Below are positions 321 through 61,937 of a DNA stretch of 64,000 bases, piece by piece. The notes beneath the pieces were generated by a model that saw only the letters and a list, made by a program, of their open reading frames with translations, did no database searches and was not told the DNA's origin. Numbering within the stretch: the stretch's first letter is position 1; each line of letters begins with the position of its first letter. The stretch covers positions 31,760,432-31,824,431 of the forward strand of contig NC_090411.1 of the NCBI RefSeq assembly GCF_036365525.1, written 5' to 3'. The translations under genes and the position numbers were made by a program. The stretch is from Heterodontus francisci (Eukaryota).

Positions 321-1327
321 CTTGATGTCCTCCAAGATGATTCGGCCTCCACGTTTATTCTGGAATTTCATCAGTTTCTCAGCGTGCTCCCGTTCCTCAT
401 GTGACTGCTCCTTGAAGAACTCAGCAAAGTGACGCAGGGCAACATCATCCCGGTCAAAGTAATAGGACTGCAGGTAGAGGCAAAATGGAAGGGGAAGAGA
501 GGCCAGACCCAAATTGCATTTATGGCCATGTCAAAAATGGTAACAATATCATGGTTGATAAATCACTCATTCTTTACCTCAAAAGAGTTTGCTTTTTATT
601 AAGGAGCTTGGTTTTTCAAGTTTATGCTGTAAAATACTAAACATATTGACATGCCCCTCCATGACATTACAAAAAGCAGTCATACAATTTGTATTAAAAT
701 TTCATTTCAGCATTCAAATTATAGTTATCAGCAGGTCATTCTTCACTCCCCCAATGAAGATGCAAGTGAAAGAGAAAAAAGTCTCAGTAGAATAAGACTT
801 TTAGATTACTGGTTCATGCAAAGTGATTACCCCTCGTACAAAAGAGTTTAGCACCACAGGATTTACTCATTTACAAAAGGGGAAAGTCAGGCCAGAACTA
901 GTCAGACAGTGTTTCACTAACTAGTCACTCAACTTAATTGTTGCCATTCAGGTTGGAAAAGATGACTAGGTTTATACATTTTCAACATGAACCCTCTATT
1001 AGAAAATTCATGGAACCTTAGAGTTACTTTCAAAATTGGACATAAATATTGCAAAGCAAGGAATAAAGTCCCTGTTTTAAGGGTGCTCACTGATTTAAGT
1101 CTAGCGAAGGCTAGAGAGATACATTATAAACCCAACTGTTTGGCCTAGAGAAATTCTAGCTACACAAAATGTATTGAAATTCCAATCTTAACTTTGAAAC
1201 AGGACCCCAAGAAAACAATACACACCATGGAAAGATAAACATAGGAGGAATAGAGCTCCAGGTTGACTTGCTTGTTAACAGCATCTTCACAGTCCTTGTG
1301 GTAGTTCTGACACACTTGAGAGGCCAT
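321..1327 (-). CDS. Ferritin heavy/middle-type subunit, copy 1 (partial: exons 1-2; exons 3-4 lie left of the window)
   Basis: Exon1 1226-1327 ([34 protein letters not shown]; extra in-frame ATG at 1328-1330). Exon2 321-467 ([49 protein letters not shown]). GT/AG sites present; TATAAATA at 1398-1405. Confidence 0.93.
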
Positions 1328-1397
1328 CATAATCTTTACTGCTAACAGAAGCTAAGTTTAAACAACAGCAAATAACTGCTTCCTACACAAGCTCTTG

Positions 1398-1590
1398 TAT
1401 TTATACTGCTGGGTCAGCCTATAGTCAAACAGGGAATGACATCATTAATGATGATTGACAATTCCAGGTAGCCAGTCAGGAATAGTTCCTGAATCCAGGC
1501 ACCAGTTAACAATGTAGTCAGGCTGTGGGGGTTGGACCCAGAGACAATGAGAGCTGTGGAATACAGGCAGGTTTGGATGATTATATTGTG
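1398..1590 (-). promoter_or_regulatory. Conserved ferritin-array promoter, copy 1
   Basis: TATAAATA ~70 nt above the ATG, then TGACATCA and a block alignable with the same region of copies 2-8 and 10. Confidence 0.7.
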
Positions 1591-1594
1591 ATTG

Positions 1595-2590
1595 GTAGGA
1601 ACAGGATGAGGCCATTCAGCCCCTCAAGCCTATTCAATTAGATCATGGTTTGTGTTTTAAGGCCATTTACCTGCATTGGTTCCATATTGTTTCATACCCG
1701 TACCTAACAAAAATCTAACAGTCTCGGTTTTGGGGGAGAGAGTTCCAGATTTCCATTTCCCTTTTTGTGAAGAAATACTTCTTGACGTCACCCCTAAATG
1801 GCCGAGCTCTAATTTTAAGATTAAACCCCCTGTCCTGGACTACGCTACTGATGGAAATAGTTTCTCTCTATGTACCCTATCAAATCCATTAATCATGTTC
1901 AATACATCAACTGTAATCATTCTTTAATCATCTATACTCGAGGGAATACAAGACTCTTCTATTCAAACTGTACACATAATCTAATCCTGTTATCCCTGGT
2001 ATCATTCTGGTGAATCTGTGCTGCACTCCCTCCAAGGTCAATATATCAGAGCTGAACACAGTCCTCCAGATGTGATCTAACCAGGGCTTTATACAAATAT
2101 AGCATAACCTCCACCCCTTTGTATTCCAACCCCCTTGAAATGAAGTCTAAAATTCTAGTAGACTTTTTAATACATTTATGCACCTATCCACTAGTTTTTA
2201 GTAATTTCTGTACACTGATTCCTAACCCTCTCTGCTCTTCACCATTTAGAAATTACTCTGATTTATCTTTCTTGGTCTTCACATCGAAGTCCATCAATCA
2301 CAATTTTGCTCACTCGCTTAATCTGTCAATGCCCTTTTGCAAATTTCTGCTCCCATTTGCACTGCTTACTGTGCCACCTAACTTAATGGCATCAGCAAAC
2401 TTGGATATACAGTACTCTATTCCTTCATGTATATTATTTATAAATATAATGTAAAGCTGGTGCCCCAGTATAGATCCCTTGGAGTGCATACCCATTATCC
2501 CTACTCTCTTGTCTCCATAAAATATTTAAAGGATTCCTCCAATTCCACAGGCTTCTAACCTAACCTCTTGTATTTAACCTTGTCCATGAT
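1595..2590 (-). mobile_element. Decayed CR1-type LINE 3' fragment
   Basis: Minus-strand remnants GSILG..YIIFIN..ISKFADAIKLGG (ORF 2310-2495) and a CR1-like 3' end; paralogous to 8545-8677 plus 10578-11180. Confidence 0.75.
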
Positions 2591-58869: not shown

Positions 58870-59150
58870 AAAACTATCAAATTATAATTTTACTCTCTGT
58901 ATCCACTGTGCACTGCAGTCCCTCCGGTGCCCACCGATCACAGAAATCTCGAGTGTATTGGTTGTCACCGTATGCTCCCTCTTCAGGGACACCGGGCACA
59001 GGCATGGCCATGGAAGAGATGCGGGTAGCTGGACAAATCTGTCCCCTCGACCATGCTCTGCCTGGACCTGATGGGGTAGCCACCTTGGCCAACCCCAGGA
59101 GCAGACCCACAAGGAGGTCCTCTCACCCGTTCCCCTCCACACCAAGTGGC
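58870..59150 (-). mobile_element. Tx1/L1-clade LINE 3' remnant
   Basis: DLLVGLLLGLAKVA...FCDRWAPEGLQCTVD resembles the Tx1 ORF2 C-terminus. Confidence 0.6.
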
Positions 59151-59779
59151 CAAGATCAGGAGAGTGGGATTGAAGTGAAAAGTGCCTCTTTTAGGTCACC
59201 AGTAATATGAGATAGTCAATTCAGCTAAAAAGATTCAAAATATAAGGATCAAGTGCCATTGCAACAAAAAGATACCTTCCCTACAAAATCAGGATCTTAT
59301 TTTTGACGTGCAAGATACTGTAAATCCTGAGGTGCCCACTGGTGGCAGAAGGCATCCAGGGTACCAGTGGACACCACATGCTCCCTCCCTCAGGGCCATC
59401 TGGGCAACTGCAAGACGATAGAAGAGAAACAGGCAGACAGAATGACCCCACCCAACCAGCTGTCCACCATCCCAACCCCATGGGCCTAACCAGTCCTGGA
59501 ACAACAAATTGCTGAATTAGCTATGCCTAGCAAGCCCAAAAGAAGATCCTGACTTTCTCTCACTCGTCCCTTCGCATCCTGCGGCTACAGATCTAGTAAC
59601 ATTGGGGAAACATAGTGTCTCCTTATGTGTTACTTTAGAAAAGAATACCATTCGTGATGATCATGATTGTTTATTTTTGCTTCCCACGTGTAATATTTTG
59701 AACTTGTCTGCAGTATTCATCCAATGGGGCCCATCAGCAAAGTTCTGCCTGGTCTGAAGTATCATCCCCACTGCACCTT

Positions 59780-59937
59780 ATCCTTGATTGGTGTCCTCTG
59801 TGAGTATAGAGCTCTGATTGGTTACTGGGAGTTGTTACTCATCAGCTGGAATGTCACTCCCTGTATTTAAGGCGCGCTGTCCACATACTATAAATACTGG
59901 AGCTTGGTAGGGAATTAGGTTTATTTAGGAAGTTAGA
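59780..59937 (+). promoter_or_regulatory. Promoter/leader of copy 11
   Basis: Two inverted CCAAT boxes (GATTGG at ~59786 and ~59816); TATAAATA at 59889-59896, only 41 nt above the ATG. Confidence 0.65.
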
Positions 59938-61937
59938 ATGGCTTCCCAAGTGTGTCAGAACTACCACAAGGATTGTGAAGATGCTGTTAACAAGCAGATC
60001 AACCTGGAGCTCTATTCCTCCTATGTTTACCTGTCTATGGTGAGTTTTATTTCAACTCCTAAGTTCAACTCACTTAATCACACTGTAGTAAATGCACAAT
60101 GAATGTATTGTTTTTAAAGTTGTAATGTAGTGACATATCTGACTTATATGAACAGTAATAAACTTTTCTGTTCCTTGCAGTTGCTGTACTGAGTGTCTTA
60201 AATCTCAATGATTCCCTTTTACTGGGTTGTAAACTTTGTATGAAGTTTAGTTCTGAAAAATACTCTTGTAATTCTGGTGAAAAAATCTTAATGTTAACTT
60301 CTAGATGTATTATAACTTAAATTGACCAATTTATCATTTTGAACATGTTCAAGTGATATTGCAATTAAAGTTGAATTGGTAACTTTAATGGCTAACTTTC
60401 TATTGAGATCTTAGCATTTGTTAAGTAAGTAGGCCTATGTTAACAGCTGTCATTAATTAATAAATATTCACAATTAAAATGTGAGTGCCCATTTCAAGGG
60501 GCACAATGAATTTGTCAATTTTTTTTAAAACTTACCTTTCAGAGACAAAATATTAAATTTAATTAAACACTCCTGTCCCTCTAGTGCTCACTAGGTGAAG
60601 GCCTCTAGCATAGTGGCAGACATTACTTGTCTCATCTCCAGAGACACCCAGGTGTGACTGCCTAGTGAAGAGACAAGCAGTTGGGTCAAACAGCCCCCTA
60701 GTAAGCCTATGATGGAAATGTACACTTTGACCTTAAAAGGGATAACATTGAGCTTAACTTTGTGTACAATATGCATTTTAATTGCTCTTGTGAGATACCT
60801 TGCTAATTATTTTTAATCTTTCCACAGTCCTATTACTTTGACCGGGATGATGTTGCCCTGTGTCACTTTGCTGAGTTCTTCAAGGAGCAGTCACATGAGG
60901 AACGGGAGCATGCTGAGAAACTGATGAAATTCCAGAATAAACGTGGAGGCCGAATCATCTTGGAGGACATCAAGGTTAGATTTAATAAGCAGCTCCCTTC
61001 AACAGATTGAACTGCAGTTTCAATTCTATAGGGTAAAAACAAAATACTGCAGATGCTGGAAATCTGAAATAAAAACAAGAAATGCTGGAACCACTCAGCA
61101 GGTCTGGCAGCATCTGTGAAAAGAGAACGCTGGAGTTCCGAAGGAGGGTCACTGACCCAAAACATTAACTCTGCTTCTCTTTCCACAGATGCTGCCAGAC
61201 CTGCTGAGTGGTTCCAGCATTTCTTGTTTTTTTTCCAATTCTACAGGAATTGGTTTGTTTGACTGCATTGTTTGCTTAATGGTGAACTGTCTGACCTTTC
61301 TCCAGAAGCCAGAGCAGGATGAGTGGAGCAATGGTCTGGAGGCAATGCAGAGAGCTCTGCAGATGGAGAAGGATGTGAACCAGAGTCTGCTGGATCTGCA
61401 CAAACTCTCCACTGGCAACACTGACCCTCATGTAAGCTCTTTAATGTGGGCTCTTGGGTAAATTAGAATTGATTAAACTTTACTGTCATTCAGAAAACCT
61501 ATATCCATAGCTTTGTGCTGTGGTGTCTCTGGATTCTTTAAGAGGTGATGGAGAGGAAAAGGTGACTTACTTCCTGTGGACAGGAAGCAAATGTGTCCCA
61601 GTGATTCTGGGTACTATACATCTATTTATCTTCTAATGCAGTAATTCCATCAATCTCCATTGTATCACTTGCACATCCTCTAGTCTCAGTGCAATAAAAT
61701 TCAAACTCTCTCAGGACTAAGATTTTTGATCTGCTGTTGATTTTGTAGCTCATTTCCCTTTTTTTTTTTTTTTTCTTTCAGTTGTGTGACTTCCTGGAGA
61801 CTCACTACTTGGATGAGCAAGTGAAGATGATCAAGAAGCTTGGCGATCACATCACCAACCTGAAGAGACTGGGAGCCCCTGACAATGGCATGGGAGAGTA
61901 CCTGTTTGACAAGCTCACCCTGGGGGAGAATGACTGA
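59938..61937 (+). CDS. Ferritin heavy/middle-type subunit, copy 11 (176 aa, opposite orientation)
   Basis: Exons 59938-60039, 60828-60974, 61306-61431, 61782-61937. GT-AG introns; ends [15 protein letters not shown] 62074-62079. Confidence 0.95.
61035..61235. repeat. Palindromic element (hairpin) in intron 2 of copy 11
   Basis: Arms 61072-61118 and 61183-61230 are reverse complements (AAAACAAGAAATGCTGGAACCACTCAGCAGGTCTGGCAGCATCTGTG); related fragment at ~33170-33290. Confidence 0.8.

Follow-up and report, generated by a model that had tools for sequence, protein, structure and literature searches.

A Large Array of IRE-Less, Ferroxidase-Type Ferritin Genes in the Shark Heterodontus francisci, with a Possible Role in Bulk Ovarian Iron Storage

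The textbook picture of ferritin in vertebrates is that of a single-copy gene under IRE control. A 64,000-nt stretch of the Heterodontus francisci genome (NC_090411.1, 31,760,432 to 31,824,431; the window, within which copy positions are counted here) is lined with ferritin copies, which raises the question of what kind of ferritin is amplified at this locus and what a shark would use it for.

An earlier note had described the window as a tandem array of at least 11 intron-containing ferritin genes, one per 5 to 8 kb, and had overlooked the absent IRE, two pseudogenes and an inversion. Eleven copies are indeed present, but two (D and I) are pseudogenes, copy K is inverted, and the ten minus-strand copies lie 3.6 to 7.4 kb apart from start to start. 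Exon matches between 321 and 61937 number 11, 11, 10 and 10 for exons 1 to 4, and the copies comprise eight that are complete and intact, one cut by the window edge and two that are broken. The exons follow the classic layout of four exons (102/147/126/147-156 nt) and three introns known from vertebrate ferritin genes (PMC4117605), and the introns have GT..AG ends throughout. On the minus strand are copy A (g17, 321 to 1327; exon 1 at 1226-1327 and exon 2 at 321-467, with exons 3 and 4 beyond the window's left edge; intact, 173 aa), copy B (g18, 4684 to 8270; exons at 8169-8270, 7168-7314, 6558-6683 and 4684-4830; intact, 173 aa), copy C (g19, 12407 to 14793; intact, 173 aa), copy D (g20, 18630 to 20509; its ATG lost, with a stop in codon 13 and frameshifts both in exon 1 and in exon 4), copies E (g21, 21998 to 24135), F (g22, 27857 to 30088) and G (g23, 33472 to 35777), each intact with 176 aa, copy H (g24, 39950 to 42089; intact, 175 aa), copy I (g25, 44357 to 47267; 4 nt deleted from exon 1, the frame closed by a stop in codon 31), and copy J (g26, 52276 to 54626; open frame, 175 aa), the most divergent. 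Copy K (g27, 59938 to 61937; exons at 59938-60039, 60828-60974, 61306-61431 and 61782-61937; intact, 176 aa) is the single plus-strand copy and stands head to head with copy J, 5,312 bp from ATG to ATG. The interval between them (54627 to 59937) is the centre of a large inverted arrangement whose left arm is on the minus strand and whose right arm is on the plus strand.

The earlier note held that the array continues off the left edge, and 16 further units are found there, with another 64 to the right. The whole, here called array A, comprises 91 ferritin units over 603 kb without gaps, 68 of them intact and 23 broken or partial. For most window copies, mirror twins occur in the right arm at 92 to 98.5% identity, introns included, which contradicts the claim that the introns are unique. 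Of 487 candidate frames in the flanks, the longest 150 were scanned, and their credible hits were confined to Snf7, fn3 and ferritin.

The array proteins belong to family PF00210. In a residue register set from PDB structures and named proteins, E27, Y34, E61, E62, H65, E107 and Q141 are all kept in 64 of the 68 intact copies, bearing out the earlier statement that most copies keep them; copy J of the window has His65Gln. Judged by these residues, array A encodes ferroxidase-type ferritins. The closest solved structures are amphibian and teleost M ferritins (PDB 1mfr), with which array A aligns without gaps over 175 residues and shares the ferroxidase ligands, Glu57 and Glu64. Of the nucleation positions, E57 and E64 are present in 68/68 copies, and position 60 is His, as in frog M ferritin, or Arg. 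Array A differs from M ferritin in a Met at the position of frog Asp140 (66/68 copies), in Lys at Arg23, in its separate clade and in its number of about 70 copies; salmon M1-M3 carry an IRE (PMC4117605), whereas array A does not. A literature search on residue 140/144 returned no paper. Arg23 is missing from all 68 array A proteins, which have Lys or Gln instead, and from 98/98 array proteins of other sharks. In human FTH1 this residue is required for NCOA4 binding (PMC4592949). The substitution tested in that work was R23A, and Arg to Lys is a conservative change.

A protein tree with H, M and L chains, as the earlier note had proposed, was read first in a quick version and then built carefully with 39 rows. 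In the careful tree, whose resolution does not extend to the deep branches, array A forms its own clade (97/91), and the H clade (98/98) includes the FTH1 gene on contig C14 and excludes array A, so that an origin as FTH1 duplicates was rejected, as was a grouping with elasmobranch FTH1 (p-AU 0.002). FTH1 is linked to BEST1, and the single IRE-bearing FTH1 on C14 lies beside bestrophin exons (46.706-46.727 Mb); no bestrophin exons were found on C41, the contig of the array. Near the end of array A lie an M-like, IRE-bearing gene, g94, at a distance of 29 kb and an L-like gene, g95, at 62 kb. Array A shares its locus with M-like and L-like genes, not with FTH1. Genes assigned to family level as RUVBL-family and glycogen synthase also lie on this contig, at distances of 1.1 and 6 Mb.

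No IRE was matched by Rfam in the window, although Rfam did match the element in g94, a g94 retrocopy and the C14 FTH1 gene, and a stem-loop scan of 844 kb found none 5' of any array A copy. The 5' UTRs are short and the copies have a common CCAAT/CRE/TATA promoter, exemplified by the 5' region of copy G (35778 to 36025, minus strand), with its short IRE-less 5' UTR, TATA box, CRE-like TGATGTCA, kappaB-like site and inverted CCAAT/Y-box motifs. Among the 68 intact copies, whose counts as paralogues are not independent, a TATA-like box lies 49-105 nt upstream of the ATG in 61, CTGATTGG occurs in 55 and a CRE-like site in 61. Among these copies, oestrogen-response and E-box motifs were either missing or present without enrichment, and the cytoplasmic polyadenylation element is absent from all 68 3' UTRs.

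At four-fold sites, array A copies differ by 0.040 in exon 2, 0.023 in exon 3 and 0.085 in exon 4, compared with 0.29-0.35 in intron flanks. Distances in exon 3 do not track those in non-coding DNA (Spearman 0.05), and one exon 3 form is common to 37 of the 68 intact copies. That exons 2 to 4 are alike (silent differences of 2-9%) while introns are about 30% apart points to exon-confined gene conversion, which likely keeps the exons alike. Array copies of other sharks are marked by lineage-wide diagnostic residues. Such homogenisation argues for dosage rather than subunit diversity. The earlier note had offered both; dosage is supported by the homogenised exons, a pN/pS of 0.18 and the 68/91 intact units, and diversity within the array is not, because the copies are being made alike. 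The diversity, as read from the residues, sits between arrays: 5 Mb away is a second IRE-less ferritin array, array B, whose 13 genes have Lys at the E62 site (L-type Lys62), as in reptile L chains, in place of the catalytic type of array A. Promoters of the two arrays align with a median score of 40-43, compared with a shuffled maximum of 28-34 and five control promoters at background. The quick tree joined array B weakly to reptile L, a placement that the careful tree did not recover.

Several other readings of array A must be weighed. Misassembly, such as a head-to-head join of two haplotypes, could have inflated its copy number, an idea that some mirror pairs with only about 1% difference in non-coding DNA might suggest. 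We consider this extremely unlikely, since the 844 kb scanned contain no N, arm-to-arm identity is graded with arm-specific insertions, all 68 coding sequences differ, and 57 intact genes remain after collapse of twins at <2% and 43 at <5%. Hardly more credible is a diversification into functionally distinct subunits: the 68 intact genes do encode 67 distinct proteins in three C-terminal length classes, but mean protein identity is 95.6%, 64 of 109 amino-acid variants are singletons, and the exons are homogenised. Mostly neutral birth-and-death amplification, in which conversion from a few working copies keeps the others intact-looking, would account for the broken units, for the homogenised exon 3 in broken copies too (7 of 14 four-exon pseudogenes compared have the commonest form) and for the assignment of RNA to three end copies only. 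It is nevertheless improbable, in that promoter identity (0.77) exceeds that of introns (0.59-0.67), pN/pS is lowest (0.085) in exon 1, where conversion is least, and all the shark groups sampled have retained multi-copy arrays.

The expression record bears on this and on one further alternative. Runs X6, X8 and X9, taken as RNA by guess, consist of contigs without tissue labels, so that depth cannot rank genes and uncovered window copies are not evidence of silence. Spliced contigs were assigned only to g87 and g88, with read-through into g89, three copies from the right end of array A; in two same-sample runs no transcript was assigned to the 11 window copies, an absence that, in contigs, does not indicate silence. 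Array A could instead encode a ferritin induced for immune or antioxidant purposes, which leukocytes (epigonal organ) or stressed tissues would make in bulk to withhold iron outside IRP regulation. In sharks the ovary and the epigonal organ are closely joined, so granulocytes could be the source of an ovary signal. This alternative, unlikely but somewhat less so than neutral amplification, draws on the CRE-like sites, on a kappaB-like site in 27/68 promoters (paralogue counts, not independent; shuffled mean 0.08 per promoter), on g88 junction contigs at a word depth of 3,400-4,900 in one run without tissue label, and on the hadal snailfish with its 14 copies of fthl27, overexpression of which lowers ROS (PMC10746142). 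Against it, ARE-like motifs (6/68 promoters) and MRE (2/68) fall under shuffled levels, and the expression reported for the Greenland shark is ovary-specific, not broad.

That report belongs to a body of known systems. Ferritin expansion itself is already described in other sharks: a preprint by Sahm et al. 2024 (bioRxiv 10.1101/2024.09.09.611499) presents large ferritin clusters in Greenland and great white sharks which, like array A, are ancient tandem arrays whose genes are for the most part full-length, and it gives ovary-specific expression for the largest Greenland shark cluster. The ovary datum is one sentence of that preprint on another species, applied here to array A by analogy with the Greenland shark scaffold-30 cluster. 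The preprint labels its copies FTH1 and FTL, whereas array A is not FTH1. The word 'iron' is nowhere in its main text, so IRE loss is not stated there, and its passages seen here mention neither conversion, a common promoter nor a Lys62 array; we found IRE loss, conversion and paired arrays nowhere in print. Snailfish fthl27 is likewise a tandem dosage expansion of a fish ferritin gene, but it has 14 copies, is recent and shows high expression across most tissues (PMC10746142), whereas array A has 91 units and is elasmobranch-wide. Snail yolk ferritin (Biomphalaria, Lymnaea), tied to egg provisioning, is IRE-less like array A but has a signal peptide and a 42-aa insertion (PMC10799875). Array A has neither, being gapless to frog M from residue 1, and would be cytosolic; snail yolk ferritin is a functional analogue only.

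We lean toward the reading that array A, a set of IRE-less ferroxidase-type genes with exons kept alike, makes bulk ovarian ferritin independent of iron levels; its observed part consists of the copy number, intact frames, missing IRE, promoter motifs, exon-confined homogeneity and position by M- and L-type genes. In this view a single cell type, probably the oocyte or the follicle cell, would activate some 68 TATA promoters bearing CCAAT/Y-box and CRE-like motifs at the same time, and their mRNA, having no IRE, would be translated at any iron level, so that cages could be built ahead of iron loading. The co-regulated array B may supply L-like partner subunits, and Lys or Gln for Arg23 may weaken NCOA4-mediated degradation and leave a long-lived store for the embryo. 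Against this reading stand the assignment of presumed RNA contigs to three right-end copies only, the ovary datum's origin in another species and its possible granulocyte source, the missing cytoplasmic polyadenylation element, the Met at the frog Asp140 position, which may affect catalytic rate, and the conservative nature of Arg to Lys. More tentatively, and with some doubt, sharks and rays may have evolved another, complete ferritin system that is free of IRP control, in which co-regulated catalytic and L-like arrays would form NCOA4-resistant heteropolymer cages that stock the egg with iron. Such a system would be a vertebrate equivalent of yolk ferritin, its uniformity maintained over hundreds of millions of years by exon-confined gene conversion.

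The FTH1 label on the shark expansion is corrected here, which matters for any attempt to relate shark traits to the number of ferritin copies. Array A also offers a clean natural case of what appears to be exon-confined concerted evolution, and its 68 IRE-less genes would provide a way of storing iron in bulk without recourse to iron sensing.

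The eleven ferritin copies claimed for the window (C41:31760432-31824431) by the earlier note were all recovered by exon searches. Eight copies have complete open frames (173-176 aa in gene models) and one is cut by the left edge, whereas copies D and I are pseudogenes. Ten copies lie on the minus strand and copy K on the plus strand. The surrounding array (array A) consists of 91 array-type units (g01-g91) across 603 kb, within 844 kb of the contig (NC_090411.1, here C41) that contain no N. It comprises 68 intact genes, 15 disrupted four-exon genes (for g28 and g43 this class rests on an exon 4 short by 2 nt) and 8 partial units. 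Units g01-g26 are on the minus strand and g27-g91 on the plus strand; some 110 kb of the left arm are a mirror image of right-arm sequence (92-98.5% identity), and direct repeats as long as 27 kb occur within the right arm as well. An exon-3 pattern gave 76 exact matches in the 6.0-Gb genome, 74 of them on C41 at 31.65-32.25 Mb, and the reversed pattern, used as a control, gave none. The ferritins of the source genome match shark proteins. Collapsing near twins leaves 57 (<2%) or 43 (<5%) intact genes, so that array A is large even if read sceptically. Array A is real and striking.

A protein tree with H, M and L chains spoke against an FTH1 identity of array A. Array A forms a separate clade (support 97/91) whose sister is a chimaera protein (91/86); a topology that placed it together with elasmobranch FTH1 was rejected (p-AU 0.002). 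The single ferritin on contig C14, which bears an iron-responsive element (IRE) and has a bestrophin gene some 50 kb away, nests within the H clade (98/98). Beyond the right end of array A lie g92, g93, the M-like, IRE-bearing g94 and the L-like g95; judged by position rather than by branching order, array A is a member of the M/L locus. The divergent, IRE-less g92 (C41:32255245-32259658, L064, minus strand) carries E61K and H65Q. The intron-containing g93 (C41:32264920-32275081, L065-L066, plus strand) has a GC-rich promoter and an in-frame 59-aa leader with 8 Arg/Lys and no Asp/Glu, and similar leaders occur in the public proteins P0095, P0117 and P0119. It is a candidate shark mitochondrial ferritin and would differ from the mammalian gene, which is intronless. 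The highly divergent g95 (C41:32310856-32317330, L069-L070, plus strand) is without several ferroxidase ligands, and no IRE was found in it. Array A is flanked on the left by a Snf7-domain exon (L047:253-531) and on the right by fibronectin type III exons (L074:8719-9054 and L076:5133-5510), all on the plus strand. A catshark model in which a receptor phosphatase is fused to ferritin (P0066) suggests that catshark ferritins have the same neighbour.

Among eight sources scanned with Rfam, IREs were matched in g94, its retrocopy on contig C1 and the C14 gene, whereas the window gave no match. A stem-loop scan of the entire 844 kb returned only the g94 IRE and one match away from any start codon; the loop hexamer occurs ≤110 nt from the ATG in 4 of 68 intact copies, with no stem there. 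A TATA-like box lies 49-105 nt 5' of the ATG in 61/68 copies, so close that the 5' UTR would be only tens of bases. Array A promoters share CTGATTGG (55/68), a CRE-like octamer (61/68) and a kappaB-like site (27/68). Oocyte genes typically have promoters of the CCAAT/Y-box type, a resemblance that is only suggestive here.

A second array (array B; C41:26667352-26838783, L084-L101, plus strand) contains 13 predicted four-exon genes, whose exon matches are free of stops, together with one broken gene; two further broken copies lie near 26.37 Mb. No IRE-like match was found in array B. Its promoters are homologous to those of array A (4 of 13 scored against shuffles), and CTGATTGG is present in all 13. 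The E62 site is Lys in array B genes, in 7/7 other-shark relatives and in two reptile L chains, a change that presumably disables the ferroxidase site. In array A, as the earlier note had stated for the window copies, the ferroxidase residues are kept in most copies, all seven being present in 64 of the 68 intact ones. The three-fold channel residues D131 (68/68) and E134 (67/68) are also kept. Among solved structures, frog M ferritins come closest, and they align without gaps. The position of frog Asp140 is Met in 66/68 array A copies and 97/98 array-type proteins of other sharks, and that of human Arg23, which is required for NCOA4 binding (PMC4592949), is Lys or Gln in 68/68 and 98/98. The 98 proteins are hand-picked, near-full-length rows among 260 sequences, leaving out fused, partial and non-array rows, a sawfish row and rows apparently from the same assembly.

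Differences at four-fold sites in exons 1 to 4 were 0.196, 0.040, 0.023 and 0.085 (300 random array A pairs), and intron flanks differed by 0.29-0.35 versus an unrelated baseline of 0.43. Exon 3 differed by just 0.027 even among the 1,511 most distant pairs, and its distance did not correlate with non-coding distance. Certain residues are lineage-wide: R132 in 42/42 carpet-shark and V164 in 17/17 Heptranchias array-type proteins, and D159 in 66/68 array A copies; in a quick tree, copies cluster by lineage with moderate support. Gene conversion best explains both the exon homogeneity and these residues. Selection on silent sites is a possible cause of the low silent divergence, for which DNA was compared within this species. 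Overall pN/pS is 0.18, and 0.085 in exon 1.

Spliced joints are visible in contigs of runs presumed to be RNA, among them X8 and X9. In X8, all listed exon pieces that were checked fit g88, and a contig of 2,528 nt is as long as a read-through product from exon 4 of g88 to g89 would be; one spliced contig in X9 is compatible with g87 only. More than one array A copy is therefore transcribed. Exon 1 of g92 is matched, by eye, by contigs in both X8 and X9, and in a run of a different organism a spliced contig matches the 5' end of copy G. Processed pseudogenes derive from g94, array A and array B (L081 on C1, L077 and L118 on C10, L119 on C48, L120 on C36); those of the two arrays imply that array mRNA once occurred in the germ line. 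Several public models are about 265 aa long (P0191, P0193, P0195, P0196, P0198 and P0199). In the two examined (P0196 and P0199), exons 1-3 of one copy are fused to exons 2-4 of the next; such fused models are probably annotation artefacts, and read-through splicing between adjacent copies is a possible origin. P0192, P0300 and P0334 are vertebrate-type ferritins that carry bacterial names; their contigs are very short, and they are probably contamination. Window open frames of 490 aa (9054-10523, plus), 261 aa (16150-16932, minus) and 308 aa (57080-58003, minus) appear to resemble LINE reverse transcriptase fragments, and SINE-like repeats recur, e.g., at 3350-3680 and 47665-48010.

A second Greenland shark genome paper reportedly describes a ferritin expansion. 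The shark expansion itself is already known from one paragraph of a preprint (Sahm et al., bioRxiv 10.1101/2024.09.09.611499), which gives 155 'FTL' and 179 'FTH1' copies in the Greenland shark, in clusters syntenic with those of the white shark, and describes the largest cluster as expressed specifically in the ovary. A search whose coverage mostly excluded subscription journals found no paper on shark IRE loss, conversion or paired arrays. By analogy with expression in that other species, array A may have an ovarian role. What is new here is an IRE-less two-array ferritin system.
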